Positions 10,410-42,105 of a DNA stretch of 64,000 nucleotides are shown here, in pieces; position 1 is the first letter of the stretch; each line of letters begins with the position of its first letter. A program made the position numbers and the translations under genes. This DNA comes from Candidatus Omnitrophota bacterium (GTDB taxonomy: Bacteria; Omnitrophota; Omnitrophia; Omnitrophales; Aquincolibacteriaceae). The notes under the pieces are model-generated. The model was not told where the DNA came from. It saw nothing but the letters and a program-made list of their open reading frames with translations, and ran no database searches. The stretch is from positions 22,958 through 86,957 of the forward strand of contig CAISGE010000015.1 of assembly GCA_903884815.1 (NCBI GenBank). Reading direction: 5' to 3'.

Positions 10410-10919
10410 TTAAATTGTGCAGCCTTTCGAGGAGGTTATATCGCCAGGGTTGGCGGGTTCTATCGGTTTGAAGACCATTTGGCATTGCCAATTTATATCA
10501 ACGGAACCATCAAATCCGCCGGAATCATAGCTAACATAATCCCCGGTGTGATCGTTTCTTCCCTCGACCTGGAAGGTAGAGCCAGACACGCTCGCATAGT
10601 ACCGGTACTTCCAATTTTTTGATTTATCAATGCCCGTGAGCCCAAGATCCTGCCAACTCGACTCGTTTTTGTCAAAACCCTCGTCCCAAGGATCCGAACA
10701 AACCTCGAAGACATCTCCCGGGAGTATGTAAGTTCCTTGGAAGTCGTAGTATCTTTCTGCGGCGCGTTTAATGGCGCCGACCATTTGAAGGGCTTCGGCG
10801 GCTTTGGCTTTTTCAGTCTGCATGAGCATGCGGGGTACGATGAGTGACGCCAAAATGGCAATAATGACGACCACGATCAATACTTCAACGAGCGTAAAAC
10901 CTCTCTTCGGATTTTTCAC
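10410..10919 (-). CDS. type IV pilin-like protein (prepilin-type N-terminal cleavage/methylation domain), paralog 1
   Basis: Leader VKNPKRG then FTLVEVLIVVVIIAILASLIVPRM. GTG start with an AGGAG RBS 7 nt upstream. C-terminus ends KGCTI like paralog 6. Confidence 0.75.
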   Translation of the reverse strand: MKNPKRGFTLVEVLIVVVIIAILASLIVPRMLMQTEKAKAAEALQMVGAIKRAAERYYDFQGTYILPGDVFEVCSDPWDEGFDKNESSWQDLGLTGIDKSKNWKYRYYASVSGSTFQVEGRNDHTGDYVSYDSGGFDGSVDINWQCQMVFKPIEPANPGDITSSKGCTI

Positions 10920-11012
10920 AAGATTTCTCCTGAGGAATGACGCGAAACCCCTGTCTGGTGATTCGTCATCCACCTGCTAAAACTGTAGCACGAATTCAGA
11001 AAGGGGGGAGAC

Positions 11013-11091
11013 GGGCGGGAAACGTGGAAGGGTGAACGTTGAACGATTGAAAGAAGCGGGTGATGCCTCCGTTAACCGTTCCCCTTTTTTT
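11013..11091. repeat. HPE copy 4 in the divergent region between pilin paralog 1 and the GT-C-like gene
   Basis: GGGCGGGAAACG TGGAAGG GTGAACG TTGAACG ... CCGTTAACCGTTCCCC T7. Confidence 0.7.
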
Positions 11092-11169
11092 ATAAAAGTA
11101 TTCCCCCCGCGGAAGCTCTTGAGTACAATACCCGCGATTTTCTTTTTCTTAAGGTCACGAAAGGCTCTT

Positions 11170-12726
11170 GTGAAAACCCGACATTTGTTTTTATCTTTAA
11201 TGGCTGCTCTGGTTTACGCCTTCGGTCTCACCCCGACTCTCGACCCGGACATGGGGTGGCATTTGGGGACCGGGGAGTGGATTCTCCAACACGGGTTTCC
11301 GAGGACGGATCCTTTTTCCTTCACCGTGGCCGGCCATTTTTGGACTGCTCACGAATGGCTTTCCGAGGTGATCATGCGTCGCCTGTATGGTTTGGGGGGA
11401 TATCCGGCGATGATGATCTCTTTCGCTCTTGTGGGTGTGCTGGTCTTTGGCCTTGTCTACTGGACCTGTCCCCGGAGGCCGTACATTGCCGGGGCCCTTG
11501 CTTTTTTCGCCCTTCTGACGTCCCGTTTTCTCTGGGGTGCCCGCCCGCAGATCTTCAATGTCCTGATGATGGCCGCCTTTCTTCTGCTGATCCAGGGCGT
11601 GAGAATGCGTCGTTTCCACTGGAAGTTCCTCTACACGCTTCCTTTGCTCGTCATGATCTGGGTAAACCTTCACAGCGGGTACCTGCTTGGGCTTGTGGTG
11701 ATGGTCGCTTTTTTGACGGGAGACCTCTTCCAGATCTTTGTACTCCATTCAGAAGAAGGGACCTTGGGAGAAAAAGGTTTGGCGCATTTTTCGGGAATTT
11801 TAATTTTGTGTCTGGCCGCAGTGGGGATGAACCCTACGGGCTATAAGATCCTTCTCTATCCTTTCGAGACCCTTTCCAGCAAGATCATGCAAACGACCAT
11901 TTTGGAGTGGCAGTCGCCGATCTTTCAGCATTGGAACTACTGGCCTTTTCTCGGCGTGATGTCGCTTGGGGCAGCCGCATTTTTACTTTTTCCGCCCAAA
12001 CGCAATATCGCCAATTTTCTGATCTACGCGGGATCCATGGCTATGGGGCTTTTCGCCCGCAGGCACATCCCTTTTTTCGCGGTCGCTGCGATCCCGATGA
12101 TCGCGCTGGCCGTGAGCGAGGGGTTTCCCGTTCCTGCCTGGGTGAACCGGGGGAGTGATGTTGCTCTGACGCAGACCGCAAGAACGTTCCGCTATCTTTT
12201 GAACGTGTTTTTTGCGATGGTCATTTTGGTGGGTGTCTTTTCCTGGACGGGGTATCGCTTGAATCATAATCCATCCGCGATGGAAAAATCATTTCCGGTC
12301 AAGGCGTTCCAATTTATCAAGGGCAATGGGGCTATTGCCCGGCTCAGGATCTATAATGAGTACGTCTGGGGTGGGTACCTGATCTGGAACGGTTTCCCGG
12401 TTTTCATGGATGGGCGCGCGGACCTTTACGGGGGTAAATTCTTTTTCGATTACCTTTTCGCGCATGATCTGCGGGGAGGGGCGGTAGGCATTACGCGCTA
12501 TCTCGACAGCTATGGTGTCGACGGGATCCTCGTTCCTCCGGGAGGAATTTTGGGGAATGCTTTTCTCTCGAATCCGGAATGGCGGCTTGCCTACCGGGAT
12601 TCCACCGCCGTTTTATTTCTTCGCAAGGTGCCTTTTTCCGTACCTCCCGTGACCCAGAGTCCGGAGCGTTTCTATTCGCCGCTGAAAAGTAATAATCTTG
12701 AGGGGCCGAGGCGCCCTCATTCATGA
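11170..12726 (+). CDS. polytopic membrane protein, GT-C-like (unknown function), paralog A
   Basis: GTG start chosen to align with paralog B (24 aa before the DPDMGWHL loop). Many TM helices. C-terminal soluble domain with NEYVWGGYLIWNGFPVFMDGR. Confidence 0.55.
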   Translation: MKTRHLFLSLMAALVYAFGLTPTLDPDMGWHLGTGEWILQHGFPRTDPFSFTVAGHFWTAHEWLSEVIMRRLYGLGGYPAMMISFALVGVLVFGLVYWTCPRRPYIAGALAFFALLTSRFLWGARPQIFNVLMMAAFLLLIQGVRMRRFHWKFLYTLPLLVMIWVNLHSGYLLGLVVMVAFLTGDLFQIFVLHSEEGTLGEKGLAHFSGILILCLAAVGMNPTGYKILLYPFETLSSKIMQTTILEWQSPIFQHWNYWPFLGVMSLGAAAFLLFPPKRNIANFLIYAGSMAMGLFARRHIPFFAVAAIPMIALAVSEGFPVPAWVNRGSDVALTQTARTFRYLLNVFFAMVILVGVFSWTGYRLNHNPSAMEKSFPVKAFQFIKGNGAIARLRIYNEYVWGGYLIWNGFPVFMDGRADLYGGKFFFDYLFAHDLRGGAVGITRYLDSYGVDGILVPPGGILGNAFLSNPEWRLAYRDSTAVLFLRKVPFSVPPVTQSPERFYSPLKSNNLEGPRRPHS

Positions 12727-12741
12727 GATCCCATTAAATCT

Positions 12742-14241
12742 ATGACGAAGCGATCGATCTTATTCCTGTTTTTCGTGACGGTTCTCTTCTGCCTGGGGTT
12801 GGTGGAGACGGTGGATTCGGACCTTTGGTGGCATTTGAAGGTGGGTGAATCCGTTTTTACCCACGGGATCCCTCGCGTGGATATTTTTTCATTTACGGCG
12901 GTGGGGCAGCGTTTCATTGATCAGGAGTGGTTGTCTGAAGTGCTCCTTTATTTGATGAACGCCTGGGCCGGAATGCCGGGGCTGATGATCTCTTTCGCGT
13001 TTCTTTCGGTGATCACGTTTGGATGCGTCTATTTCACACGGGCCGGTCTCCCGCTAGTGGGGATCCCGATGACGATCCTCGCGTGTTATTCCTCCAAATT
13101 TCTATGGCAAGCCCGGCCGCAGATCTTCAATATTCTCATGCTCGCCGCGTTGCTCTGGCTCCTTCAAGGCGTTCGGGACCGGAAAAGATCCTGGAGATGG
13201 CTTTACGTGCTTCCGGTCTTGTCGCTTTTTTGGGTCAATATGCACAGCGGGAACTTGATGGGGATCGTGGTGATGGCTCTGGTGCTTGCCTGCGATGCTT
13301 TCCAGGGGGGAGTGCTTCATTCGCGGGCTGAAGGTATCCTCCGGGGCGTCGAAATCAAACATTTTGCCGTCGTTTTTTCTCTCTCCGTGCTGGCATCTCT
13401 TTGCAATCCGGTGGGGTATAAGATCTTCGTTTTTCCTCTTCAGACCCTAAGCACTAAAGAGATACAGTCTTTTATCATGGAATGGCAGTCCCATGATTTT
13501 CACAATCCGTTCGCGTGGGGATTCCTGGTGATGCTCGTGGCCGGTGCGATGAGCCTCATGTTATTTCCGAAGAGGTTGGACCTGGCCACCGCGTTTCTGT
13601 ATGCCGGCTCCATGGCCGGAGCGCTCATGTCGCGCCGTCATTCGCCTTTCTTTTCCGTGGTTGCGACTCCCGTGATGATCCAGATGATCTCAAGCGGGAT
13701 CACTTCCGCCCGGTGGCGGGCATTTCTCTCTCTTGAATTCAGTTGGAATTTCCCAAGAGGGGTGCGCTATGGGGTCTTTTCGCTTCTCGCGGGTTTGATC
13801 TTCGTCGGTTCCTTTGTCTGGAGCCAGCACAAGATCGCGGGATATCATCGCTCGATCTCGCAGTATTTTCCCGTGAAGGCGGTGGAGTTGCTCAAGGGGA
13901 GAGGGTACTCCCCAAAAAGGGTCCTCAACGAATATGCCTGGGGCGGGTATTTGATCTGGAACGGTTTTCCTGTTTTTATTGACGGGCGCACGGAGGTCTA
14001 TGGCGCGCAATTTTTCAAGGATTATTTGGACACGATGGGTTCAAGGGAGTTCTCACCCAAGGTTCGGGGACAGTTGGACCGTTGGGGGATTGAGTATTGC
14101 CTTCTCAATGCACGAAGCCCGCTGCGCAATGCCTTGAAAATGACCGGCGAGTGGCAGGAAGTGTATCAAGATGGCTTGTCCAGCATCGTGATCCGAAAAC
14201 CTCTTCCGCCGGGTTCTGCGGTCAAGCCGGAGGGAAAATGA
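12742..14241 (+). CDS. polytopic membrane protein, GT-C-like (unknown function), paralog B
   Basis: Clear paralog of the preceding gene. Shared blocks: DSDLWWHL, QEWLSEV, FLWQARPQIFN, HSGNLMG, NEYAWGGYLIWNGFPVFIDGR. Confidence 0.55.
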   Translation: MTKRSILFLFFVTVLFCLGLVETVDSDLWWHLKVGESVFTHGIPRVDIFSFTAVGQRFIDQEWLSEVLLYLMNAWAGMPGLMISFAFLSVITFGCVYFTRAGLPLVGIPMTILACYSSKFLWQARPQIFNILMLAALLWLLQGVRDRKRSWRWLYVLPVLSLFWVNMHSGNLMGIVVMALVLACDAFQGGVLHSRAEGILRGVEIKHFAVVFSLSVLASLCNPVGYKIFVFPLQTLSTKEIQSFIMEWQSHDFHNPFAWGFLVMLVAGAMSLMLFPKRLDLATAFLYAGSMAGALMSRRHSPFFSVVATPVMIQMISSGITSARWRAFLSLEFSWNFPRGVRYGVFSLLAGLIFVGSFVWSQHKIAGYHRSISQYFPVKAVELLKGRGYSPKRVLNEYAWGGYLIWNGFPVFIDGRTEVYGAQFFKDYLDTMGSREFSPKVRGQLDRWGIEYCLLNARSPLRNALKMTGEWQEVYQDGLSSIVIRKPLPPGSAVKPEGK

Positions 14242-14660
14242 GGGTGGTCGAAGTCGGTTGTGCGATCATTCACAAGAACGGACGGATTTTGATCGCGCAG
14301 AGACATTTACAGGATAGTTTCGGAGGCCTCTGGGAATTCCCGGGAGGCAAGCGGGAAGAGGGCGAAACGATCGAGGCGTGTTTGTCCCGTGAAGCCCAGG
14401 AGGAATTGGGCGTGGGAGTTTATCCCGAGCGCTTGCTGTGCCGGAGAGAGCATGGGAATGAGGACCGCAGGATCTCGCTCTTCTTTTTTTTCTGTAAATG
14501 GGAGAACGGGGCGCCACGGGCGATCGATTGCAAGGATTTCCGCTGGGTGGGTCCGGAGGAGATCCGAAGTTATACTTTCCTTCCCGGGGATCTGGAAGTC
14601 GTGGAGGATCTGATCCTTCACTGGGAAGAGTATTTCAAAACGGCGGAAATGGGCCGATAA
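14238..14660 (+). CDS. NUDIX hydrolase (MutT-like)
   Basis: Nudix box GGKREEGETIEACLSREAQEELGV. ATG overlaps the upstream stop (ATGA). Confidence 0.8.
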   Translation: MRVVEVGCAIIHKNGRILIAQRHLQDSFGGLWEFPGGKREEGETIEACLSREAQEELGVGVYPERLLCRREHGNEDRRISLFFFFCKWENGAPRAIDCKDFRWVGPEEIRSYTFLPGDLEVVEDLILHWEEYFKTAEMGR

Positions 14661-14743
14661 TAGGGAAGTCTCTTGCGCTGAGGGACTGGAGATCTGAAAA
14701 GAAACGCGTTCGATATCAAGTGAAAACTGAGTCCCGGAGAAAA

Positions 14744-16591
14744 ATGCCGCTAAGCAAAATGGTGAAAGATCCAAAAAGTTCAGGGGTGTCGCTCAGGAGG
14801 CACGCCTGGCGCCTGCCGCTTCGCTACAAACTAGCGCTTCCGACGCTTGTGCTGATGCTCGGGGTTGTTATCTTTGTTCTTTTTACCACCTTCTCTGTTT
14901 TTCATGAGATGACGGTGAAATACAAGGAGGCGCGTCTCCAGGCGGTCGCCGAGATCTTCGCGGAGACCCTCAAGATTCCGATGGCCGTGGAGGACCAGTC
15001 CTCTCTCCGGGCTTATATCCAGCTGTTGGCCGAGCAGACCGGGGCCGACGAGGTTTGCCTCCGGCGTGCGGACGGAGAGAAGATCAGCGCCGGCCGTTCC
15101 GGGACAACCCACTTCTCCGACATCTCTTACGCTCAGGATTTCTTCGGAGTCAAAAAAGTCGGAGAAGGCGTTTACGCATCGGTGGTCCCCATTCTGAGTG
15201 AGAAAGAGATCCTCGGGCAGCTCATCATTGTTTTTTCGCGAGGCGATTTCGAACGGGAGCTCCGGGAACTTTTTATCGAGAAATTCTTCATCTCTTTCCT
15301 TTTGGTGACGCTGGTGGCGTTCGCCATCGCTGGCTTTACCTGGCTGGCGATGAAACCGCTCACGGCCCTTCAAAAAACGGCACGTAATATTTTGGCCGGG
15401 GATCTTGAGGCGCGCGCCGATATCCATTCCGCGGATGAGATTCAGGAGCTCGGCGAGGCGTTCAATAAAGTGGTCAGCCGCCTTGTGCAAAGCTTTGAAC
15501 ATTTGCGGGCGCGCACGCAGGCCCTTGAGGAATCCGAGGAGAAATACCGTTCGATCGTCAATAACGTGAGCGATATCATTTTTTCGATCACTCCGGAAGG
15601 TGAGCTTTTGATCTTGAATCGCGGGTTCTCCGGGTATTCGCGCGAAGAGATCCTCGCAGAAGGCCTCCCCCTCTTTTTTTCCATGCATGCCCCTGGCGAG
15701 GCGCAGAAATTCCAGGACGCCCTCGAGACGATCATGCGGACCAAGAAACCCGTGGAGCATTTGAGCACCCAGCAGTTCCACCGACTTCACCACGCCGAGA
15801 TCTATTACCAGACCAATCTCACGCCGGTCGTGGATTATGAAGGGAGCCTGCGCTTGATCCAGGGCGTCATGCGCGACGTCACGGACCTGCGGCATGTGGA
15901 AATGATGAAAGAAACCCTGGTCCGCGATGTGGCCCATGAGCTCAAAACCCCCACCGCGAAATTTATCATGACGCTTCCGTGGCTTGAAAAGCAAATGGAA
16001 AACAATTCCGAAAAAGAGAAATTCATGCCGATCATCAAAATGCTCAGCGAGAACGCCGACCGTCTTATGAGGACCATTTCAAGCATCATGGACCTGTCCA
16101 AAGTCGAGTCCGGCATGTCGGATATCCGAAAGCAGGAGATCGATCTCAACGAAGTGTTACGGCTTGTGGTCGATGATATGAGGCCTTTGATCGAACAGCA
16201 TCATCTGAAGCTCGAGACCCGGTTGAGTTCCGGGCCGCTGAAGATGCTCGGTGATCCGGATATGCTTTACCGGGTTTTTGTCAATCTGATCACGAATGCC
16301 GCGAAGTTCACCCCGGACGGGAGCATCACCGTGACGTCCTCGCTCCGCGGAAATGATCTTTGCGCGGAAGTGACGGATACGGGGATCGGGATTGAACCGG
16401 AGAACCTGCAAAAGATCTTCGAAGCGTTTTTCCAAAAAACGCCTTCGACCCTGGGCATAGGGGTCGGGCTGACGATCTCCAAGGAGATCGTGGCGTTGCA
16501 TGAAGGGGAGATCTGGGCCGAAAGCGGCGGTGCGGGCCAGGGGAGTATTTTCAGGGTTATTTTTCCCTCGTATCCGATGTCCGGCAAATAA
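14744..16591 (+). CDS. sensor histidine kinase (TM, HAMP, PAS, HisKA, HATPase)
   Basis: H-box VAHELKTP. HATPase N/G boxes (ITNAAKFT, DTGIGIEPE, GLGVGL). N-terminal TM segment. Start trimmed to ATG after a GGAG RBS. Confidence 0.85.
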   Translation: MPLSKMVKDPKSSGVSLRRHAWRLPLRYKLALPTLVLMLGVVIFVLFTTFSVFHEMTVKYKEARLQAVAEIFAETLKIPMAVEDQSSLRAYIQLLAEQTGADEVCLRRADGEKISAGRSGTTHFSDISYAQDFFGVKKVGEGVYASVVPILSEKEILGQLIIVFSRGDFERELRELFIEKFFISFLLVTLVAFAIAGFTWLAMKPLTALQKTARNILAGDLEARADIHSADEIQELGEAFNKVVSRLVQSFEHLRARTQALEESEEKYRSIVNNVSDIIFSITPEGELLILNRGFSGYSREEILAEGLPLFFSMHAPGEAQKFQDALETIMRTKKPVEHLSTQQFHRLHHAEIYYQTNLTPVVDYEGSLRLIQGVMRDVTDLRHVEMMKETLVRDVAHELKTPTAKFIMTLPWLEKQMENNSEKEKFMPIIKMLSENADRLMRTISSIMDLSKVESGMSDIRKQEIDLNEVLRLVVDDMRPLIEQHHLKLETRLSSGPLKMLGDPDMLYRVFVNLITNAAKFTPDGSITVTSSLRGNDLCAEVTDTGIGIEPENLQKIFEAFFQKTPSTLGIGVGLTISKEIVALHEGEIWAESGGAGQGSIFRVIFPSYPMSGK

Positions 16592-16622
16592 CGAGGATTG
16601 TCTTTTTTATAGGGGAGGCAGC

Positions 16623-16988
16623 ATGAGCAAGAAAATTTTAATCGTCGAGGATGACAGTGATTTTCAGGATATCTATTCTCTCTTTCTCCGGGGGGAGTCC
16701 TATCAGGTGCTGACGGCAGGTAACGGTCAGGAGGGTCTGGAGGCCCTTGAAAAGGAAACGCCCGATCTGATCATCCTGGACCTTATTATGCCCGTGATGG
16801 ATGGAGAAACCTTTTATGTACGCCTCCGCGAACAGTCCAAGTGGAAATCCATCCCGGTTCTTATCGCCAGCGTGAATGACAAGATGCCTGCCCGCATTAC
16901 AGAACTTGGCGGCATTGCCGGCAATCTCAGGAAGCCTTTCCATATCGATACCCTGCTTGGCAAGATCCATGAGTGTTTGAAAGTGTAG
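16623..16988 (+). CDS. response regulator, stand-alone receiver domain
   Basis: MSKKILIVEDD...DLIILDLIMPVMDG receiver motifs. 121 aa with no output domain. Confidence 0.8.
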   Translation: MSKKILIVEDDSDFQDIYSLFLRGESYQVLTAGNGQEGLEALEKETPDLIILDLIMPVMDGETFYVRLREQSKWKSIPVLIASVNDKMPARITELGGIAGNLRKPFHIDTLLGKIHECLKV

Positions 16989-16995
16989 GGCGAGA

Positions 16996-17066: not shown

Positions 17067-17164
17067 TAGACAAATCCCGCGCCCTCGGTTATCATGACTT
17101 CGTGTTTTAATTGTGCGCCTTCCGGAGAGTTCCTTGTCCTATCCCAACTTTGCATTTTAAAAGA

Positions 17165-19971: not shown

Positions 19972-21045
19972 ATGAAAAAACAAAATACGATCCTCAGGAA
20001 AAAAACGCGGGCGGTCAAGGTCGGAAAATTGATCTTGGGGGAGGGTCACCCCATTCGTATCCAGTCCATGACCAAAGTCCACACCAAGGACATTCGCGCG
20101 GTTTTGGAGCAGATCGCGCGGCTGGAGCAAGCGGGTTGCGAGATCGTGCGCTGCGCGTGCCCCGGCGAAGAAGACGTCAAGGCGCTGGGGAAGATCAAGG
20201 CGAAAATCAAGATCCCTCTCGTGGCGGACATTCATTTCAATTACCGGTTCGCCCTGATGGCGATCGATGAAGGTGTGGATAAACTCCGCCTCAATCCCGG
20301 CAATATCGGCGACAAGGATCGCGTGGCCGAAGTCGTGGAAAAAGCAAAGCGTCACCACATCCCGATCCGGATCGGGGTCAATTCCGGCTCGCTTGAAAAA
20401 GATCTGATGGAAAAATACGGGCCCACGCCCGAAGCCTTAGTCGAGAGCGCGCGGCGGCATGTTGCGATCCTTGAGGCGCTGGATTTCCATGACACCGTGA
20501 TCTCGCTCAAGGCGACCGATGTTCCGACCATGATCGAGGCCTATCGTCTCGCGAGCCAAAAATTTGATTATCCTCTTCATCTTGGCGTCACCGAAGCCGG
20601 GACTCTGATGCGGGGCAGTATCTATAACGCGATCGGTGTGGGGACGCTTTTGCAAGAGGGGATCGGTGATACGATCCGCGTGTCACTCACGGCGGATCCG
20701 GTCGAAGAAGTGAGGGTTGCGCGGATGATTCTGGAGTCACTCGACCTTCGCGAAGGCGTGCGCGTCATCTCCTGTCCGACTTGTGGGCGCACCGAGATCG
20801 ATACCGCGAAGCTGGCTCAGGAAGTGGAGGCTCGCGCCATGCGGCTCAAAGGGCCGCTTACGATCGCCGTGATGGGATGCGCGGTCAATGGTCCCGGCGA
20901 AGCCCAGGGTGCGGATTTCGCGATCACCGGCGGCCAGAAAAAGGGCATGATCTACGTCGCCGGGAAACAAGAACGCGTGGTCGACGAAGCGCATCTTGTT
21001 GATGAATTGTTTAAAGAGATCGAGAAAAGACAGGGCAACGGGTAA
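19972..21045 (+). CDS. ispG: 4-hydroxy-3-methylbut-2-enyl diphosphate synthase
   Basis: ISCPTCGRTEID and MGCAVNGPGEA Fe-S motifs. About 357 aa. Confidence 0.9.
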   Translation: MKKQNTILRKKTRAVKVGKLILGEGHPIRIQSMTKVHTKDIRAVLEQIARLEQAGCEIVRCACPGEEDVKALGKIKAKIKIPLVADIHFNYRFALMAIDEGVDKLRLNPGNIGDKDRVAEVVEKAKRHHIPIRIGVNSGSLEKDLMEKYGPTPEALVESARRHVAILEALDFHDTVISLKATDVPTMIEAYRLASQKFDYPLHLGVTEAGTLMRGSIYNAIGVGTLLQEGIGDTIRVSLTADPVEEVRVARMILESLDLREGVRVISCPTCGRTEIDTAKLAQEVEARAMRLKGPLTIAVMGCAVNGPGEAQGADFAITGGQKKGMIYVAGKQERVVDEAHLVDELFKEIEKRQGNG

Positions 21046-23474: not shown

Positions 23475-23483
23475 ACAAAATAA

Positions 23484-23525
23484 AAGGGGACAGGCAGTTA
23501 TTTGATGCCTGTCCTCTTTTATTAT
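23484..23525 (+). terminator. rho-independent terminator (GGGGACAGGCA hairpin family)
   Basis: AAAAGGGGACAGGCAGTTATTTGATGCCTGTCCTCTTTTATT, 9 nt after the stop. Confidence 0.7.
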
Positions 23526-23725
23526 TTCAACAGACTACCTACCCCGTACTACCTACCGTTTTTCAAATCGTGCAACCTGTCGCAGATTTGTCTCCATCTA
23601 TAACAGGGGGTATGGGCTTAAATGTGTTCCAACATTGCCAAAGGTCATCCCCTGAGTAGTATTGCAGATAAGGATAAGGCGAGGGGTCTGTGTCGATTTT
23701 TGCGGTAACTTTGAACGTTTCGTCG

Positions 23726-24070
23726 TTAAAGGCCGCATACCGATACGTCCAAACTTATTGTCTTTTCTATGCCGGTAAGCCCAAGATCGGCCCAACTAGC
23801 CTCATTAGAGTCTTGAGAATCATCCGTGGGATGCGAAACAATTATTGTTGCTCCATCTTGAAGTATATTGGGAAGCAGATAGGTTCCATGGAAGTCGTAG
23901 TATCTTTCCGCTGCGCGCTTCATGGCGCCCACCATTTGAAATGCTTCGGCGGCTTTGGCTTTTTCGGTTTGCATCAGCATGCGCGGCACGATAAGCGATG
24001 CCAGGATAGCGATGATCACGACCACGATCAATACCTCGACAAGCGTGAATCCTCTTTGCCTGTTTTTCAT
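23726..24070 (-). CDS. type IV pilin-like protein, paralog 2 (C-terminally truncated, probably frameshifted)
   Basis: MKNRQRG then FTLVEVLIVVVIIAILASLIVPRM. Only 114 aa versus 166-187 for the paralogs. A +2-frame ORF (23598..23795) continues downstream. Confidence 0.6.
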   Translation of the reverse strand: MKNRQRGFTLVEVLIVVVIIAILASLIVPRMLMQTEKAKAAEAFQMVGAMKRAAERYYDFHGTYLLPNILQDGATIIVSHPTDDSQDSNEASWADLGLTGIEKTISLDVSVCGL

Positions 24071-24194
24071 AAGCTTCCTCCTTGGGAATGACGCAAAATT
24101 ACTATCTAGAGATTCGTCATTTACCCAAGAAAACTATAGCATATGTTCGGAGGGTGGGGGCCGGAAGGCGAGGACGCCAGGGACGTTCTCCCTA

Positions 24195-34810: not shown

Positions 34811-34813
34811 AAC

Positions 34814-34890: not shown

Positions 34891-35659
34891 TCTTCTTCGA
34901 TTTCGTGTGAACCGCTTCCGCGATTATCTTGTGTATCGCCTGCCGGTTCCTTTGCTGGATTTCCCTCACGTTCTTCTGAGCTTTTTTGAGCGCGGCCTGT
35001 TTCTCTCTGCGCTCCTGAGGATCTTTGGCGGCTTTCAGATCTGTCTGAAGCTGGAGGATATCCCTTTTGAGGCTGCTTACGGTCATGGAGATCGTTCCGC
35101 CTTCCGTGATCACCGCGGTGGAGGCGGAAGTCATCGATGAGCCGACGCCTGCCGGAAGATCACCCGCTGTAAGATCTCCCAGAACCAGGGATACATTCTC
35201 GCTGATGTTGATCGTGACCCCTTCGGGGATGCGTAGGGTATCAGAAGCCAGGACGCCTTGTCCCTTGATCTCTAAAATGCCGTTCGCAGGGAGCTTGTCG
35301 AGAGCGCTCTGGATGTCGTCGTGGATATCGATGACAGTATGAGGAGAAAGGGTTTCAATTCCTTTTGGCCCGACCGTGGGGGTCGACTTTACGGCATATT
35401 CCATCCCAATGCTTGGGGTTTCAGCCTGCTCAGGTCTGACCATCTCCGTGCCTTCTATTGTGGAAGGTGAAAGAGGGGATTCCTGGGTATCATAATTGGA
35501 TGTAGACGGCCCCGCCTTCTTTTCCGCAGCCGGAACGGCTCGGAGCATTGAATCTCCCTTCGCGGGTGCGGGTGATGTATCCGCCGCCCAGCCGGTAAGG
35601 CTGAGGCTCGTCGAGAGCATTGCCGTCATTATCACAGCCAAAAAAACGATTTTTTTCAT
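34886..35659 (-). CDS. secreted hypothetical protein
   Basis: Signal peptide MKKIVFLAVIMTAMLSTSLSLTGWA. Lys-rich, coiled-coil-like C-terminus. Confidence 0.5.
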   Translation of the reverse strand: MKKIVFLAVIMTAMLSTSLSLTGWAADTSPAPAKGDSMLRAVPAAEKKAGPSTSNYDTQESPLSPSTIEGTEMVRPEQAETPSIGMEYAVKSTPTVGPKGIETLSPHTVIDIHDDIQSALDKLPANGILEIKGQGVLASDTLRIPEGVTINISENVSLVLGDLTAGDLPAGVGSSMTSASTAVITEGGTISMTVSSLKRDILQLQTDLKAAKDPQERREKQAALKKAQKNVREIQQRNRQAIHKIIAEAVHTKSKKK

Positions 35660-36094
35660 TCGAAACTCCTTTTACTTATATCTTATAAAGAATATCTTAA
35701 GTCAAGGCTAACCCATGGAACGGTTTATTGCAAGGCCTCGATGTGATTTTTTTGGGGGGGTATAGCTGAGATATACGCATTTTAAAGTGGTTTAAGGAGC
35801 GGGACTTTCGTGGATATGGGTCAGGTGCGTCATCTGGGCGCAACGGGGGGGCTGGCTTGAGATTCTTCCGCAAAATACGCTTCAAGATGACAACCGGTAC
35901 TTGGAAGGTTAAATTTTTGCAAGGCCACTGTCTGAACGAGAGGGAAGGAACGCGTGGCTGAATGAGAGGCCCCGGTATGAGACCTGGGAGCTATCGGGAT
36001 GCGGTCCTCTAAAACAACGCCCCGGAGTTTTCTTTAAAATCCGAAGGAAACGAAAACTCCACAAGAGTTCATAGAAATGTCGGCCGTCTGCTTA

Positions 36095-36592
36095 TTAATC
36101 AACCCGGCAGGGATTTGAAGCATTGTCGGTTGCAAGAAGCCCTAAACAAGAATAGGAGGGGGCATTAGAACCGACAACACTCAAAGACATGTAAGCATAC
36201 GTTAAAGGGTCGCTGCTCGGATATGACATGAATACGAGGGTATAGGCGGTCGACGTAGAAGTGAGAGAATAGTAAAAATCTCTCGATTGTTGCATGTCAC
36301 TGTTAGAGATTCCGGCGGGCTGGAAGTCACCGGAGATTTGACCAGCACTGTTCGAACTATAACTTATGAACGGCGGAAAATACCACGCGCTGGCGGTCGG
36401 AAACTGGCCTGTTCTGTCATATTTACCGTCCAGGGTTCGTCTCATGAGGCCGATCATTTGGAAGGCGGCCCCGATTTTGGCCCTTCCAATTTGGCTGGTC
36501 ATGCGCGGCACGATCACCACGGCGAGAGTGGTAATGATGACGAGCACGATCAATATCTCCACCAGAGTGAAACCCTTTTTCATGTCTCTCAT
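36095..36592 (-). CDS. type IV pilin-like protein, paralog 3
   Basis: MRDMKKG then FTLVEILIVLVIITTLAVVIVPRM. Track start 36610 is a TTG artefact; the ATG follows a GGGAGAG RBS. Confidence 0.75.
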   Translation of the reverse strand: MRDMKKGFTLVEILIVLVIITTLAVVIVPRMTSQIGRAKIGAAFQMIGLMRRTLDGKYDRTGQFPTASAWYFPPFISYSSNSAGQISGDFQPAGISNSDMQQSRDFYYSLTSTSTAYTLVFMSYPSSDPLTYAYMSLSVVGSNAPSYSCLGLLATDNASNPCRVD

Positions 36593-36761
36593 GTCTCTCT
36601 CCCTTTTCAAAAGAAGTCTCTCGGCCCGCTCAAATCATCGCCGTGGTCCCACTAGAACTGTAACACATATCCGCGGAATTGGGGGCGGCGACTGTCCTTA
36701 AATCAAGACGGGGAATCGGCGCTTTAATGTTCCAATACCCACGATTTGAAGCACGGCTTGA

Positions 36762-36989
36762 TCACCTCGCCAGGCGCTGTCTCTCTTTCAGGAGCATTTC
36801 CTTCATCTCCTGAGGCAATTTTTCAAAATCCGGAGGAAGGGGCGGCAGGCCTTTCGCGATCTCCTCGCGCGTTCTCGGGTCCCGGTGCTTCGCCGTGAAA
36901 TGCGGCATAAGCGCGAAGAGCAGCGCGCAAACGCAGACACCCAGGATCACCCATTTTTTTACGGAAACTCCCTCAAAGTTCTCAGTCAT
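36762..36989 (-). CDS. small single-TM membrane protein (75 aa) between pilin paralogs
   Basis: MTENFEGVSVKKWVILGVCVCALLFALMPHF. A degenerate copy lies after the next pilin. Confidence 0.4.
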   Translation of the reverse strand: MTENFEGVSVKKWVILGVCVCALLFALMPHFTAKHRDPRTREEIAKGLPPLPPDFEKLPQEMKEMLLKERQRLAR

Positions 36990-37005
36990 GACCGTCGTCT
37001 CCTGT

Positions 37006-37518
37006 TTAGCTGAGGTCGCATGGATTTGCAGAGCTCGAGTAAGTAACAAGCCCGCTACACATATAGGTGGTAACGATATTGCCGCTCGAAAAAACCGACC
37101 CGGCGCCCACGGAAGCATACGTTGAAGGGTCGTATGAGCCCGCGGTGGAGAAGGAGATCGAACTGCTTGAGGTGGTAGACGAAAAATTAAAGTTAAAATT
37201 TTTGATTTGCTGAACGTCGTAGTTCGACACCCCCAGGACTAGAAAGTTGCCCGAGCTGGAGCTGGCATGATCAATCCCGCCCGAATCCGTGTATGCCGGA
37301 AACCAAGTCGCGGCGCCGGAAGGTGGATAGTACCCATGCGTGCTGGCATAGTTTGCAAGGTTGCGTCTCATGATCCCGAATAGCTGCATGGGTTGCGCGA
37401 GTTTGGCCCTTGCGATTTGGCTGGTCATGTGCGGTACGATCATCGCTGCGAGAGTGGAAATGATGACGATCACGATCAATACCTCCACCAGAGTGAAACC
37501 CTTTTTCATGTCTCTCAT
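37006..37518 (-). CDS. type IV pilin-like protein, paralog 4
   Basis: MRDMKKG then FTLVEVLIVIVIISTLAAMIVPHM. Ser/Thr-rich C-terminal half. Confidence 0.75.
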   Translation of the reverse strand: MRDMKKGFTLVEVLIVIVIISTLAAMIVPHMTSQIARAKLAQPMQLFGIMRRNLANYASTHGYYPPSGAATWFPAYTDSGGIDHASSSSGNFLVLGVSNYDVQQIKNFNFNFSSTTSSSSISFSTAGSYDPSTYASVGAGSVFSSGNIVTTYMCSGLVTYSSSANPCDLS

Positions 37519-37689
37519 GTCTTTCTCCCTTTTCAAAAAAGGCTTTCCGCCTTCTCAAATCATCGTCGTGCTCCCATTAAAACTGTAACACATATCCGCG
37601 GAATTGGGGGCGTCGGCTCTCCTTAAATTAAGACGGAGGATCGGCGCTTTGATGCCCCCATTCCTATCAGCCGAAGCATTGCTTGATCG

Positions 37690-37800
37690 GTTTGCTACGT
37701 GGTGAACTGCGGCATAGGCGCGAAGACCAGCGTGCAAACGCAGACACCCAGGATTACCCATTTTTTCACGAAAACTCCCTCAAAGTTCTCAGGCTTGACC
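37690..37800 (-). pseudogene. decayed duplicate of the 75-aa small membrane protein gene (start ATG->AAG, premature stop)
   Basis: About 90% nucleotide identity with 36880..37000. Translates VKPENFEGVFVKKWVILGVCVCTLVFAPMPQFTT then stop. Confidence 0.45.
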
Positions 37801-37812
37801 GCCGTCTCCTGT

Positions 37813-38334
37813 TTAGATAATCTCGCAGCGAGAAGAATCATTTTTGGCGTAAGTAAAAAGCCCGCTACACATAGCGGAAGTGTTCATGCTACTGGTAATG
37901 GGGTTAAACCAAGTTGAGACGCCCATGTAAGCGTATGCTGGATCACCCCACGGGGCTACGGAATAGAAGGAGAGCCAGCTGGATGTGGAGGAACTGGAAA
38001 AAGAAAAGTTAAAATCGTTGATTTTCTGCATGTCGTTGTTGGAAACCCCCAGGACTAGAAAGTTGCCCGAGCTGGAGCTGCCATGATAAGTCCCGCCCGA
38101 ATCCGTGTACGCCGCAGAATAAGACGCGGAGCCGGAAGTCGGATAGTACCCATGCGCCGTGTAATAGGTTTCAAGGTTGCGTTTCATGATGCCGAATAGC
38201 TGTGTGGGTTCCGCGAGTTTGGCCTTTGCGATTTGGCCGGTCATGCGCGGCACGATCGCTGCGGCGAGAATGGCAATGATGACGAGCACGACCAATACCT
38301 CCACAAGCGTGAAACCCTTCTTCATGTTTTTCAT
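37813..38334 (-). CDS. type IV pilin-like protein, paralog 5
   Basis: MKNMKKG then FTLVEVLVVLVIIAILAAAIVPRM. Track start 38667 is an over-extension; ATG at 38334 follows a GGAG RBS. Confidence 0.75.
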   Translation of the reverse strand: MKNMKKGFTLVEVLVVLVIIAILAAAIVPRMTGQIAKAKLAEPTQLFGIMKRNLETYYTAHGYYPTSGSASYSAAYTDSGGTYHGSSSSGNFLVLGVSNNDMQKINDFNFSFSSSSTSSWLSFYSVAPWGDPAYAYMGVSTWFNPITSSMNTSAMCSGLFTYAKNDSSRCEII

Positions 38335-38617
38335 AGCACTTCTCCTTTCAAAAGAAGACCAGACTGCTCTTCCGATCATCATCGTCAACCACCCGCAATA
38401 ACTATAGCACATATCCGGAGAATGGGGGGGGAGGCGGGTAACGGAATCAAGGGGGTTATTCGGCTCCCCCGGGCCTCGATCCTTCCAGTACCGGACACTC
38501 TCCGGAGTCCCTGGCACTGGAACTTCTTCGGAAGACGGGGTATTGCGAAGGGGGTTATTCCGCATTTCCCGTTTCCCGTTCACCCTTCGTTTCGATTGTG
38601 CTACAATCCCGCTCCTT

Positions 38618-39238
38618 ATGAAGAAAAAACATCCCGCAATCAAAGCCGTGATTTTCGACCTCGGCAACGTGCTTGTGAATTACGACGTCGAAAAGGCGGC
38701 GAAGCGGTTTTCGGCCGCGTCCGGGCTTTCGACTCGTGAGATATGGAAGCGTTTCTTCCTTTCCCGGTTCGAGCAGGCCTTTACGCGTGGCGATATTTCG
38801 ACCCGCGAGTTCCATCGGAGCGCCTGCGAAACGCTCGGCGTTTCCATTCCGCTGAAGGTCTTCAGCCATTACTGGAACGATATCTTCTGGGAGAATCCGG
38901 GGATGGAGAGGCTGCTCGTCCGGATCAAGAAGCATTACCCGCTTTATCTGATCTCAAATACGAACGCTCTTCACTATAACCACATCAAGAAGCATTTTAA
39001 ACTGCTCCGCCATTTCGACCGGAAATTCCCATCGCATGAAGTCGGTGCGCGCAAGCCCGATCTTCGGATCTACCGACGTGTCCTCAAAAAAATCGGTCTC
39101 CGCCCCGAAGAAACCGTTTTTATCGACGACATGAAAAGCTTTATCCTCGGCGCCCGCAAGGTTGGCATGCACGCCATCCGCTTCAAGGGCCGTCTGGCCC
39201 TCCTCAAGTCCCTTCGCAAGCTCGGCATACGTTTTTAA
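38618..39238 (+). CDS. HAD-superfamily hydrolase (subfamily IA)
   Basis: Motif I VIFDLGNV. Motif II LISNT. C-terminal FIDD. Confidence 0.8.
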   Translation: MKKKHPAIKAVIFDLGNVLVNYDVEKAAKRFSAASGLSTREIWKRFFLSRFEQAFTRGDISTREFHRSACETLGVSIPLKVFSHYWNDIFWENPGMERLLVRIKKHYPLYLISNTNALHYNHIKKHFKLLRHFDRKFPSHEVGARKPDLRIYRRVLKKIGLRPEETVFIDDMKSFILGARKVGMHAIRFKGRLALLKSLRKLGIRF

Positions 39239-39334
39239 TCTCTCTCTTCTTTGATAGGGAAAGGTTTCGATCAGAATATAAAATATAATGATAATAATAT
39301 TGATTATAAATGAATTTTGTGGTATTCTTTCGAA

Positions 39335-39859
39335 ATGGAGAGACAGCCGCTGACAACCCAGAAAATAGCCGCCTCGATTTATCTGATCCGGGGATGCAAA
39401 GTTATGTTGGATTCCGACCTGGCGGTCCTCTACGGTGTAGAGACGAAATATCTTAAAAGGCAGGTGAAGCGGAATCTGGAGAGATTTCCTCCAGATTTTT
39501 TGTATCGCTTGACTAAAAAAGAAGTGGCGGCTCTAAGGTGCCAAATTGGCACCTTAGACAGTCCTGGGCGTGGTCAATACAGCAAGTATCTTCCTTATGC
39601 CTTCACGGAGCATGGGATTCTGATGCTCTCCAGCGTCTTGAGTAGCCAGAAGGCCATTCAGGTCAATATCGCGATCATGAGGGTGTTCGCGCGGATCCGG
39701 CAGGTGCTGATTGAAAATAAAGATCTGGCACTACACATGGAAAGGCTGGAGCGCCATGTCGAGCGGCACGGAAAAGATATCCGCTCTCTGTTTGATTTTG
39801 TGGAACGCATCCTCGCGATCGACGAGAAGCCCAAGGGGCCCATTGGTTTTCACCCTTAG
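39335..39859 (+). CDS. ORF6N-domain protein (KilA-N-related, phage/antirepressor-associated domain)
   Basis: IRGCKVMLDSDLAVLYGVETKYLKRQVKRNLERFPPDF matches the ORF6N domain. Preceded by an AT-rich ~80-nt stretch. Confidence 0.65.
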   Translation: MERQPLTTQKIAASIYLIRGCKVMLDSDLAVLYGVETKYLKRQVKRNLERFPPDFLYRLTKKEVAALRCQIGTLDSPGRGQYSKYLPYAFTEHGILMLSSVLSSQKAIQVNIAIMRVFARIRQVLIENKDLALHMERLERHVERHGKDIRSLFDFVERILAIDEKPKGPIGFHP

Positions 39860-39874
39860 CTGCAGGGAATCCAA

Positions 39875-40720
39875 ATGGCAAACCTGTTGAGGACCGCACT
39901 GCTTCTGACGATTCTGATCGTTCTTGTGGTGGTCATAGGCTACGCTTTAGGTGGAAACAGTGGGATCCTTGTGGGCCTTGGTCTGGCGTGTCTGATGAAT
40001 CTGAGCCTCTTCTGCGCGAGCGGCAGGATCGTGTTGGCGATGCACCGGGCGCTGCCCTTGACGGAGGATGAGGCACCGGAGGTTTTTGAGATCGTCAAAC
40101 AGCTTTCTGCGAAGGCGGGTATTCTGGGACCGCGCCTTTTTCTGTTGCCGTCCGCTTCCGCGAATGTTTTTGCGACAGGGCGCGATGCCAAGCATTCTGT
40201 CATCGCGGTGACGCACGGACTTGTGGGCCTCCTCAACAGGGAAGAATTGTCCGGTGTTCTGGGACATGAACTGTCCCATATTCTGAACCGGGACAGCCTG
40301 CTGGCTTCCGTTGTGGCGACTCTGGCCGGCGCGCTTAGTCTGATCGCCTCGATGTTTCGGGGTTCTTTTTCCTGGGGTGGGGAGAGGGACGAGAGAGACC
40401 ATGATAACCCGTTGCCGCTTCTTTTCTTCGCAGTTGTCATGCCTTTCGTCGCGATCTTGATCCGGCTTGCGATCTCGCGTGCGCGAGAATACCAAGCCGA
40501 CGAGTGCGGAGCGCGGCTCTGCGGAAATCCGCTTTATCTTGCGAGTGCGCTGAGAAAAATGGAAGCCTTCTCTTCTCGATTTCCTTTGCGCGATGTTTCG
40601 CCCGCCACGGCGCATCTTTTTATTCTGACTCCGCTTCCCCGTAAACGATGGGCCTCTCTTTTCAATACGCATCCTCCCTTGGAAGAGCGCATGGCCCGCC
40701 TTGAGGGACTGTCACTTTAA
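39875..40720 (+). CDS. htpX: HtpX-family M48 Zn metalloprotease
   Basis: HEXXH = HELSHI. TM segments. 281 aa. Confidence 0.85.
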   Translation: MANLLRTALLLTILIVLVVVIGYALGGNSGILVGLGLACLMNLSLFCASGRIVLAMHRALPLTEDEAPEVFEIVKQLSAKAGILGPRLFLLPSASANVFATGRDAKHSVIAVTHGLVGLLNREELSGVLGHELSHILNRDSLLASVVATLAGALSLIASMFRGSFSWGGERDERDHDNPLPLLFFAVVMPFVAILIRLAISRAREYQADECGARLCGNPLYLASALRKMEAFSSRFPLRDVSPATAHLFILTPLPRKRWASLFNTHPPLEERMARLEGLSL

Positions 40721-40851
40721 AATCTTCGGGGGTCACGTCTATACTTGACAGAAATAAAAGACCGTGGAGAATACCCGCTTCTCAGATCTCGTTTTTGGCG
40801 TCAAATGCACTCCTGTTCTTTTATGTTCCATTTTCTCAGAGGGAAAAATAA

Positions 40852-41397
40852 ATGATACCCACCAACAAGTTTTTGAAGCTTACGGGAATTTTGCTCCTTT
40901 TGGGGGGTGTGGTTCTGGCCAGCGGTTGCGGGCAGGTTGCTTCCGAGAAGGCCCTGGAGGATGGAGCGGTTCTTGAGAAAAATGGAAAGCTTGCCGCGGC
41001 CATGGCCGAATACAACCGAGCGGCCGAGTTGAGTCCCGACAACACGAACGCTTATTATTACCGGGCGATGCTCTATCAAAAGCAAGGGAATCTGGATGCC
41101 GCGCTCGCGGATTATAACAAGATCATTGAGCTTAAGCCCGATTACAGTGATCCTTATTACGGTCGCGGCACTATCTACGACAGTAAGGGACAAAGAGACA
41201 AGGCCATTGCTGAGTACACCAAGGCTCTGGAGAATAATGTCAATAACACCCTGGCTTATTTCAAGCGCGCGAAGGCCTATGAGGCTAAGGGGGAGTACCG
41301 GAAGGCGCTCGAGGACGCTCAAAAAGCCAAGGTGCTTGGAGCTGCTGTAAAGGACGACTTCCTAAGACAACTCGAAGCGGGTGCGGCAGGACGGTGA
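40852..41397 (+). CDS. TPR-repeat lipoprotein
   Basis: Lipobox LLLGGVVLASGC. Four or more TPR units (AYYYRAMLYQKQGNLDAALADYNKIIEL...). Confidence 0.7.
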   Translation: MIPTNKFLKLTGILLLLGGVVLASGCGQVASEKALEDGAVLEKNGKLAAAMAEYNRAAELSPDNTNAYYYRAMLYQKQGNLDAALADYNKIIELKPDYSDPYYGRGTIYDSKGQRDKAIAEYTKALENNVNNTLAYFKRAKAYEAKGEYRKALEDAQKAKVLGAAVKDDFLRQLEAGAAGR

Positions 41398-41454
41398 GCT
41401 AGGGTCCCACCTCATTGTAGAGCGCCCGAGTCTCTCAAGGGGGATGAAGGGCGC

Positions 41455-41526
41455 TGGGGAAGGGGAAACAGCCAACGTGGAACGCCGGGCGGGAAACAAA
41501 TTATTTATCGTCACCCGTTCTCCGAT
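41455..41526. repeat. HPE copy between the TPR gene and pilin paralog 6 (convergent)
   Basis: GGGGAAGG GGAAACA GCCAACG TGGAACG CCGGGCG GGAAAC ... CGTCACCCGTTCTCCG. Confidence 0.6.
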
Positions 41527-41533
41527 ATCAGTT

Positions 41534-42007
41534 TTAAATCGTGCAGCCTTTTGTGGACATGTTAGGATCGCTGTCGGGCTCAACGGCTTTGAATACTTCA
41601 AAGCAAATCCAGATCCCGGAGCCGTTGGCATCCACGTAAGCTAGCCAATTGGTAGCGGTCTCGTCGTACGCTTGGACTGAGAGGTAGCTATGAAAACCAT
41701 AGTACACATATTTCCACGCTTTTGATTTCTCAATACCCGTAAGCCCCAGATCCGCCCAATCGCCCAGAGGAGTCCCCCAAGGGTCCGACTGAATATAAGT
41801 TCCGCTGGGAGCGTCATAACTTCCGTGAAAGTCGTAGTATCTTTCCGCGGCGCGCTTGATGGCGCCGATCATCTGGATAGCCTCGGCGGCTTTTGCTTTT
41901 TCGGTCTGCATGAGCATGCGCGGGACGATAAGCGAGGCGAGGATGGCGATAATAACGACCACGATCAGAACCTCAACGAGGGTGAAGCCCTTTTTTTGAT
42001 TTTTCAC
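41534..42007 (-). CDS. type IV pilin-like protein, paralog 6
   Basis: VKNQKKG then FTLVEVLIVVVIIAILASLIVPRM. GTG start after an AGGAG RBS. Ends KGCTI. Confidence 0.75.
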   Translation of the reverse strand: MKNQKKGFTLVEVLIVVVIIAILASLIVPRMLMQTEKAKAAEAIQMIGAIKRAAERYYDFHGSYDAPSGTYIQSDPWGTPLGDWADLGLTGIEKSKAWKYVYYGFHSYLSVQAYDETATNWLAYVDANGSGIWICFEVFKAVEPDSDPNMSTKGCTI

Positions 42008-42064
42008 AGTTCCTCTCCTTATTCGGGATGATACAGTAACACCTGATATTGCTTCGTCATTCAC

Positions 42065-42105
42065 TTGAAAAAACTATAGCATATATTCGGAGAGTTGGGG
42101 GTGGC
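42065..42105 (-). promoter_or_regulatory. conserved pilin promoter/leader element with extended -10 (TGCTATAGT), copy at paralog 6
   Basis: Gene orientation: CCCCCAACTCTCCGAATATATGCTATAGTTTTTTCAA. Near-identical elements at ~10977, 24092, 36640, 37565 and 38385. Confidence 0.5.

Follow-up and report, generated by a model that had tools for sequence, protein, structure and literature searches.

A stretch of 64,000 nucleotides (nt) of Candidatus Omnitrophota DNA (contig CAISGE010000015.1, in the following "the window") contains six prepilin genes, p1 to p6, and each of them is preceded by one and the same promoter block that is found in front of pilin genes only. The genes belong to an expanded family of type IVa-like major pilins, in which each locus, or the first gene of each tandem array, is probably a self-contained unit of ~0.65-0.7 kb, and the paralogs are probably co-regulated and serve as alternative pilin subunits, which is the likeliest reading of the data. 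The parts of a unit are an extended -10 promoter (TGYTAYAGYT) with a C-rich and poor -35 region, a leader of 60-66 nt, the prepilin gene, and usually a terminator hairpin. Pilin families of many paralogs with a conserved N-terminus have been described before, and the novelty lies in the size of this family, in its pilin-specific promoter block, and in the fact that sister species differ in the loci they possess.

The prepilin genes and their promoter block

All six open reading frames (ORFs) proposed in the initial annotation exist on the minus strand, and in a six-frame translation of the window the prepilin pattern G[FMYW][TS]L[VIL]E has exactly six matches, one in each of these ORFs. The positions given there identify the correct loci, but they are ORF ends, that is, stop-codon positions, and not gene starts. 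The genes, all on the minus strand, are p1 (10410-10919, 169 amino acids), p2 (23726-24070, a frameshifted gene with a product of 114 amino acids), p3 (36095-36592, 165 amino acids), p4 (37006-37518, 170 amino acids), p5 (37813-38334, 173 amino acids) and p6 (41534-42007, 157 amino acids, 100% identical to the public protein P0001). They start with ATG in four cases and with GTG in p1 and p6, and a GGAG-type ribosome-binding site lies 6-9 nt upstream. Longer ORFs with N-terminal extensions (187, 284 and 176 amino acids; p2 has no such extension) are ruled out, and the short starts are preferred because the ribosome-binding sites support them and because they agree with the public gene calls on the same contig.

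As had been claimed, a class III leader peptide, basic and cleaved at G|FTLVE, is present in all six prepilins; the seven residues of basic type before FTLVE are MKNPKRG (in p1), MKNRQRG, MRDMKKG (twice), MKNMKKG and MKNQKKG. Two subfamilies can be told apart. Within subfamily A (p1, p2, p6), identity is 95% for the 55 residues at the start of the mature protein, and the intact members, p1 and p6, indeed end with KGCTI, while p3-p5 of subfamily B share 49-71% of these residues with each other and with subfamily A; between the two subfamilies the alpha-1 regions are only ~55% identical. The richness of the C-terminal domains of p3-p5 in Ser, Thr and Tyr was borne out as well (36-40% vs 22-25%), and p3 contains two Cys. 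The p2 product lacks the beta-sheet and the presumed disulfide part, but three-frame translation detects a remnant of its C-terminal domain in the +1 frame (23563-23754, minus strand; VWTYRYAAF...WQCWNTFKPIPP...SATGCTI, followed by the stop). As the same product of 114 amino acids is found on 39 public contigs (P0026), the frameshift is not an assembly error of this window. According to direct repeats (D1-D5) and translations, p3-p5 are a tandem triplication of promoter, pilin gene and a small membrane ORF; the latter encodes 75 amino acids with one predicted membrane helix after p4 (36762-36989, minus strand; a public gene call without Pfam match on record) and is present as a truncated copy after p5 (37740-37812, minus strand).

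The upstream regions of all six genes can be aligned, which confirms the claim of a common element. In this promoter block, a C-tract in the -35 slot is followed after 14 nt by the extended -10 sequence TGYTAYAGTT, then by a leader of 62-66 nt with a G.CGA box, and finally by the ribosome-binding site. TGYTAYAGTT occurs exactly six times in the window, each time 71-75 nt before a pilin start codon, whereas simple arithmetic gives a chance expectation of ~0.5, and TGCTATAGT alone has three matches vs 0.08 expected. The distance of 55-65 nt between -10 region and start codon that had been estimated is close to the 62-66 nt measured from the end of the -10 region.

The individual copies are all on the minus strand. 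The p1 block (10920-11012) has CTCCCC in the -35 slot (11005-11010), TG at 10990-10989, the -10 hexamer TACAGT at 10982-10987 and a 62-nt leader with the GATGACGA box and GGAG. In the p2 block (24071-24163), TGCTATAGTT is at 24132-24141 and the leader has 62 nt. The blocks of p3 (36593-36687; CCCCCA in the -35 slot) and p4 (37519-37612) both contain TGTTACAGTT, at 36656-36665 and 37581-37590, with leaders of 64 and 63 nt, respectively. In p5 (38335-38431), a run of eight C covers the -35 slot, TGCTATAGTT is at 38400-38409 and the leader has 66 nt, and in p6 (42008-42103), CCCCCA in the -35 slot and TGCTATAGTT at 42072-42081 are combined with a leader of 65 nt.

An alignment of 11 copies, comprising the six of the window and those of the further pilin loci L086, L097, L108 and L109 (two copies), defines positions that are invariant or nearly so. 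These are CCC in the -35 slot, a 17-bp spacer, TG.TA.AG.T and then TT, a GG near the expected transcription start, and A.G.CGA ~15-20 nt after the -10 region. A twelfth copy (L110) keeps the -10 region and the leader box but has TTTCAA in the -35 slot. The C-tract, which had been described as part of the shared element, thus is present in the six window copies but is not invariant in the wider family, and TG-Y-TAYAGT is found in all 12 copies, with the start codon 62-66 nt away in the window and 60-66 nt away in the other five aligned copies.

The block resembles extended -10 promoters of the sigma-70 type, as TGYTAYAGT fits TGnTATAAT at 8/9 positions if Y is T, or at 7/9 if Y is C, and as the -35 region is poor. 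Such a combination is usual for promoters that work independently of a -35 region. Unlike plain extended -10 promoters, the block has the additional conserved CCC in the -35 slot, TTT after the -10 region, and G.CGA ~15-20 nt downstream. This conservation of C-tract, TTT and G.CGA goes beyond the needs of a sigma factor and therefore suggests, at the level of the sequence, that an additional shared factor may be involved. Inspection of the 11-copy alignment gives no indication for other known promoter types, as the spacing is incompatible with the GG-N10-GC of sigma-54 promoters and as the sigma-28 arrangement TAAA-N15-GCCGATAA is missing; a -7 motif of the Bacteroidetes type was also considered, but the TACAG variants do not fit. 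In several proteobacteria, pilA has a sigma-54 promoter under the control of PilR/PilS, and the genes described here differ from these in having an extended -10 region and no GG-N10-GC element.

Specificity of the block and selection on it

A motif that is ubiquitous upstream of unrelated genes would be a generic promoter, a possibility that had been named in advance, but the block is specific to pilin genes. When a 52-position weight matrix made from the 11 copies was used to scan ~125 kb of this organism on both strands, ten pilin sites (window, L086, L108, L109) scored 44-66 bits, with p1 at 53, p2 at 60, p3 at 54.5, p4 at 61, p5 at 63 and p6 at 66 bits, and the best other site had 6.8 bits. 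The 11 training copies still reach 28-60 bits if the respective site is left out (42 bits in the case of p1), and shuffled versions of the window do not exceed 12.7 bits. As no other site in the ~125 kb scores above 7 bits, the block is not a generic promoter. Among 39 upstream regions in the window, those of the pilin genes are the only ones with TGnTAnnnT at -71 to -75, and the matrix scan did not detect the block at a minor-pilin-like operon on the same scaffold (L109). A metagenome scan with a 28-nt pattern of promoter and leader, which had a poor recall as it missed the window's own promoters, resulted in 21 matches, of which 18 look like chance and three are real; these three are all followed by a pilin gene, and two of them are the same locus. 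A scan of a genome collection with the family alignment gave, among the matches listed, only unrelated pilins, mostly of Proteobacteria.

Beside the pilin genes, the HAD hydrolase gene (38618, plus strand) possesses an own extended -10 region, TGCTACAAT, within 38597-38617, located 19 nt before the start codon and ending 11 nt before it, which implies a very short leader or possibly a leaderless transcript. TGCTACAAT is conserved in a relative (L112), and extended -10 promoters thus exist elsewhere in the clade, but the full block does not.

Shared upstream sequences of paralogs could in principle also be a neutral leftover of recent duplication without any common regulatory function. For two pairs, p3/p4 and the two L109 copies, duplication is indeed recent, and the similarity extends past the block. 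Across the 11 copies, however, identity at fourfold-degenerate sites is only 0.44 (50 conserved N-terminal codons after the cleavage site), as is true also of the other pairs, whereas the promoter block has an identity of 0.61-0.62 that is the same within and between subfamilies, and the 60 nt farther upstream (23-82 nt upstream of TG) are at random identity (0.24-0.29). The paralogs are thus old, and the block is held by selection; with 15-20 of its positions invariant or nearly invariant in the 11 copies, even across subfamilies, a neutral origin of the conservation is hardly credible. Since the promoter has been preserved between genes whose synonymous sites are almost saturated with changes, the co-regulation that had been suggested is a reasonable inference.

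The same data speak to a second suggestion of the initial annotation, a sequential use of the pilins in the manner of phase or antigenic variation. One paralog at a time would be expressed, with switching by slippage in the C-tract, by promoter inversion, or by recombination between copies, as in Neisseria pilE/pilS or at the C-stretch of Bordetella fim. In favour of this, a single conserved 5' module is combined with many different C-terminal domains, much as a Neisseria genome combines a constant 5' part with numerous variable versions of the C-terminal coding sequence, and homopolymeric C-tracts of 5-8 nt are positioned exactly in the -35 slot. The pilS copies of Neisseria, however, have neither promoter nor N-terminal coding part and donate sequence by gene conversion, whereas in the family described here every copy has promoter, ribosome-binding site, start codon and N-terminal coding part, so that there are no silent cassettes among them. 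When paralogs are compared, the longest exactly matching stretch has a median length of 15 nt, and the maximum between non-adjacent copies, 41 nt, is reached by recent duplicates only; as these matches are short and synonymous sites are near saturation, the copies are not homogenised by ongoing gene conversion. A repeat search found no inverted repeats around the promoters. The C-tracts are short, known homopolymer-tract promoter switches of the Bordetella fim type having tracts longer than 5-8 nt; L109 and L110 have no C-tract at all, and two public copies, both identical to the window, show no polymorphism in tract length. With no silent copies, long identical tracts or promoter-flanking inverted repeats, the suggestion of sequential use is not supported, and switching of this kind is quite unlikely.

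The leader region

The leader, which had been described as conserved, turned out to be conserved in a short 5' box and in the ribosome-binding site but not in an RNA structure. Invariant are only the G.CGA box close to the 5' end and the ribosome-binding site. Most leaders contain an ATG, which raised the question of an upstream mini-ORF, but by inspection it occurs at three different offsets and opens 2-17 codons, and it is G.CGA and not the ATG that is invariant, so that this candidate was rejected.

The leader could alternatively be a structured riboregulator, a thermosensor or a switch with an anti-ribosome-binding-site, possibly in addition to promoter control, in which a pyrimidine tract would have either the ribosome-binding site or the 5' box as its pairing partner. 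Individual folds are in line with such a function in some copies, as the p1 and p2 leaders form an AUGACG/CGUCAU hairpin and as the pyrimidine tract CUUCUUUU in the p3-p5 leaders can pair with the ribosome-binding site; nothing notable is seen in p6 and L086. For the proposed helix, 80% of the cells are paired, vs 24-55% (73% at one offset) if the partner is slid. RNAalifold, however, predicts no consensus pair in 12 leaders, folding z-scores range from -2.1 to +0.9, there is only one covarying pair that is found in two closely related copies, and Rfam gives no match at the gathering score or at E<=1. A riboregulator is thus unlikely, and the leader box is treated as a sequence element. Elsewhere in the window, at 40324-40386 on the plus strand, there is a sub-threshold match to the Na+ riboswitch (RF03071; 22.7 bits vs a gathering score of 40.5 bits, E=0.2), which is located inside a peptidase M48 gene and is probably due to chance.

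Relation to type IVa major pilins

All six proteins match the Pfam family N_methyl (E=1e-10 to 6e-7; 3e-9 for p1) and, above its cut-off, the NCBIfam family TIGR02532 for prepilin cleavage/methylation. In a profile search of the PDB with 25 family members, type IVa major pilins rank first, with Geobacter PilA, Neisseria PilE, Pseudomonas PilA and Myxococcus PilA as top matches, and GspG is found at lower rank. The structure was modelled for p6 only. In this AlphaFold2 model, which has a mean pLDDT of 93, the predicted pilin fold consists of a 52-residue alpha-1 helix (residues 10-61) and a four-stranded sheet (residues 99-136), and the sole confident Foldseek match is Thermus PilA4 (6xxd; probability 1.00, TM-score 0.61 normalised to the target). 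Close to the C-terminus there are two Cys with a conservation of at least 90% among the 25 family members, and all window copies have them except the truncated p2. With the type IVa major pilins of Pseudomonas (PilA), Neisseria (PilE), Thermus (PilA4) and Geobacter (PilA), the proteins share the short basic leader that ends with Gly, Phe at +1, Glu at +5 and Pro at +22, the long alpha-1 helix followed by a four-stranded sheet, the C-terminal Cys pair, and a length of 150-166 mature residues. Unlike in these systems, which have one or two such genes, there are many paralogs per genome, and these lie dispersed between housekeeping genes, at a distance from any pil cluster.

It could be argued that the proteins are GspG-like pseudopilins of a type II secretion system and no pilus subunits, since by E-value the best NCBIfam match is TIGR01710 (GspG), over the N-terminal helix, and since one distant homolog has been named PulG by JGI. 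The TIGR01710 scores of 38-52 bits, however, are far below the cut-off of 88.85 bits and cover residues 6-88 or less, and none of the six proteins has the T2SSG domain (PF08334) in Pfam. The PDB profile ranking and the C-terminal Cys pair, which is typical of type IVa pilins, point in the same direction, as does the structural match of the p6 model, and to our knowledge there is no precedent for ~18 pseudopilin copies. A pseudopilin function is therefore very unlikely, and the six proteins are type IVa-like major pilins, not GspG pseudopilins.

Family size and turnover between related species

The family is larger than the six genes of the window. The window is identical to part of a 149-kb metagenome scaffold in ENA, on which there are two further pilin paralogs (L109), so that this scaffold alone carries at least eight of them, and ~10 further paralogs are located on contigs that are found in a similar number of samples. 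There are thus probably ~18 paralogs in the population. The further copies were obtained by exact-protein look-up and by a DNA pattern scan, and those with available DNA carry the same motif; L086, L110 and L109 also have a (GGGGAAC)n repeat. In tandem arrays, of two genes in L086 and of three in L108, the block is found only at the first gene, and later genes follow after a spacer of ~20-45 nt. The assumption that such a multiplicity belongs to a candidate-phylum lineage agrees with the host, as the named relatives of the pilins are Candidatus Omnitrophota and those of the window's Era GTPase are Omnitrophota with 78-85% identity.

In L109 (10532-13006 and 198-3012), on the same scaffold ~15 kb past the window start, the two paralogs are flanked by genes with MshEN domains. 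One of these flanking genes encodes a receiver-GGDEF-MshEN protein, MshEN being a domain that binds cyclic di-GMP, and a four-gene minor-pilin-like operon is located near the two paralogs. At L108 (1-3251), the end of a giant gene (>4193 amino acids; fn3, cadherin-like and Big_9 domains) was found ~6 kb from the three-pilin array, in agreement with the literature, where giant proteins of Omnitrophota have been reported in the vicinity of genes for secretion and pili.

The loci turn over, since three related species, the Era proteins of which are 88%, 87% and 78% identical, keep the backbone gene order but are without p2 and p3-p5; collinearity was assessed by blastn for L111 and L112, the two related contigs with DNA. 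At the p6 site, one relative has no pilin gene, and in another one two other pilins are found, the upstream region of which is short, unrelated and devoid of TGYTAYAGT. In pilin relatives that are more distant (L083), the extended -10 region is a different one, TGTGATAAT, and the leader is longer. Both p1 and p6 are followed by the tandem-array spacer element, which looks as though a copy farther downstream had disappeared. Birth and death of genes shape the family, as seen from the tandem duplicates p3-p5, the frameshifted p2, the relic spacers and the absent loci. No pilin remnant was found upstream of p1.

It is conceivable, and would be compatible with co-regulated alternative subunits, that hairpin repeats between genes serve as insertion sites of the units, which would then be mobile or duplicative cassettes; this would explain their scattered and lineage-specific positions. 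The missing p2 and p3-p5 at otherwise collinear sites of the three related species are in agreement with this idea, and the insert sizes of ~620-690 nt correspond roughly to one unit. The p1 unit is bracketed by a direct repeat (10294-10409 and 11015-11093; 39 nt at 87% and 24 nt at 83%, 684-721 nt apart) of an element of 80-115 nt with a G-rich half, GGGGAACGGKTAACG, and a C-rich half, CGTTCAACGTTC..TTCCACGTTTCCCGC. The G-rich half follows p1 and p6 and also forms the spacer of the tandem arrays: the element GGGGAACGGGTAACG is found directly after the p1 stop codon (10386-10400, minus strand), after p6 (41509-41523) and upstream of the p1 promoter (11070-11084), and it is the spacer between the tandem pilin genes in L086 and L108. 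GGGGAACGGGTAACG, however, belongs to the general intergenic (GGGGAAC)n repeat of this genome, so that its link to the pilin genes is only partial. The repeat 15-mer occurs six times in the window vs 0.25 expected, and no such repeat was found in the loci L111, L112 and L083 of related species. There is no transposase or integrase next to any unit, differential loss in the relatives would give the same picture, and there is no link to viral contigs, in which no matches were found at all, so that also a phage origin was rejected. Mobile cassettes are thus a doubtful but still conceivable addition. Intergenic heptamer repeats of the (GGGGAAC)n type are also seen at 21033, 34824, 38584 and 56246 of the window, at 15522 of L109, and at 14605-14645 and 17827-17848 of L110.

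Possible function and comparison with known systems

The data suggest a rather simple mechanism for the co-regulated pilin genes. When the -35 region is poor, a -10 region with TG suffices for the housekeeping sigma factor, and it would be this factor that reads the extended -10 promoter. One shared regulator may contact the C-tract and the leader box, and all paralogs would thereby be activated at the same time. The result would be a set of alternative subunits that have the alpha-1 helix in common and differ in the exposed C-terminal domain, and these subunits could be assembled by one type IVa pilus machine that is encoded elsewhere in the genome.

Several points weigh against this proposal. 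The transcription start site and the sigma factor are assumed from the sequence, and as no more than 2-4 of the 6 positions of TTGACA are matched by the -35 slot, recognition may depend on another sigma factor or on an activator. Likewise, assembly into pili is assumed because the proteins belong to this family and because type IVa pili have been reported to be encoded by most Omnitrophota (PMC10066038). Neither a prepilin peptidase gene nor genes for pilus assembly were found in the ~145 kb examined (window and fetched loci); for the window, the absence of assembly genes had been stated before, and indeed no Pfam domain of PilB, PilC, PilD, PilM-Q or a secretin is found in any of its ORFs. 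L086, L108 and L110 probably come from the genome that also contains the window, the argument being the shared motif, the shared (GGGGAAC)n repeat and the similar contig counts. The metagenome scan with its poor recall says little about regulon members other than pilins.

Dispersed pilin paralogs are known from other organisms. Haloferax volcanii reportedly has six adhesion pilins, PilA1-6, with an identical hydrophobic N-terminal domain. Like the family described here, these are dispersed paralogs with a near-identical N-terminal helix, a differing exposed domain and presumably one assembly machine; unlike it, they are archaeal, and the Omnitrophota family is larger and differs in presence between close species. 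We know of no report of a shared promoter/leader module for PilA1-6. In Bdellovibrio, there are multiple type IVb pilins that are differentially regulated (PMC5430801), and Saccharibacteria have been described with two type IV pili (PMC11623550). These examples have in common with the present one that small predatory or host-dependent bacteria keep several pilin genes, thought to serve attachment, but they involve few genes with different regulation or separate machineries, whereas here one promoter module is found in at least ten units. Multi-paralog pilin families are reported also for Synechocystis and Streptococcus sanguinis. In the Omnitrophota literature that was searched, pili are discussed, and pilin multiplicity and promoters are not.

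Omnitrophota are uncultivated and mostly ultra-small, and it has been proposed that they live attached to other cells or prey on them, with type IVa pili among the traits cited in support (PMC10066038). No new kind of mechanism is revealed by the pilin family, but a large family with variable exposed domains, an own selected promoter and a fast turnover of loci is a plausible determinant of the partner or surface that is bound. It can also be imagined that cassettes of ~0.65-0.7 kb seeded at least ten intergenic sites after the split from the nearest sampled relatives, that promoter and leader box form the operator of a dedicated regulator, and that combinatorial pilus surfaces serve the recognition of hosts or prey; this wider scenario is speculative and rather improbable. 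The 52-nt motif offers a handle for counting the family in complete genomes, for the search of its regulator, and for following pilin expression in metatranscriptomes.

Gene surroundings

The pilin genes of the window are found in quite different contexts. Gene p1 lies just upstream of nuoA, with a terminator-like hairpin in between (10338-10357, minus strand; ACGGGGAC/GTCCCC followed by TTTT). Gene p2 is located between convergent DUF1189 and EamA genes, and the hairpin between the DUF1189 gene and p2 (23477-23523), with 18-nt arms that are 94% complementary and A/T runs to its left and right, resembles a terminator that acts in both directions. The triplet p3-p5 lies between a DUF819 gene and the HAD hydrolase gene, and p6 between a TPR gene and a ferredoxin gene. 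The GC skew is positive on the plus strand throughout the window (1-64000), so that all six genes are on the presumptive lagging strand; a placement on the leading strand as a sign of high expression was thus discarded.

Between p5 and p6, there is a gene for an ORF6N protein with KilA-N-like DNA-binding domain (39335-39859, plus strand), which is missing at this site in the P0128 contig and in L111, the two related contigs that extend over it. A paralog with 49% identity directly follows the three-pilin array of L108 (11188-11709, minus strand), and the ORF6N gene could be a regulator or a mobile passenger.

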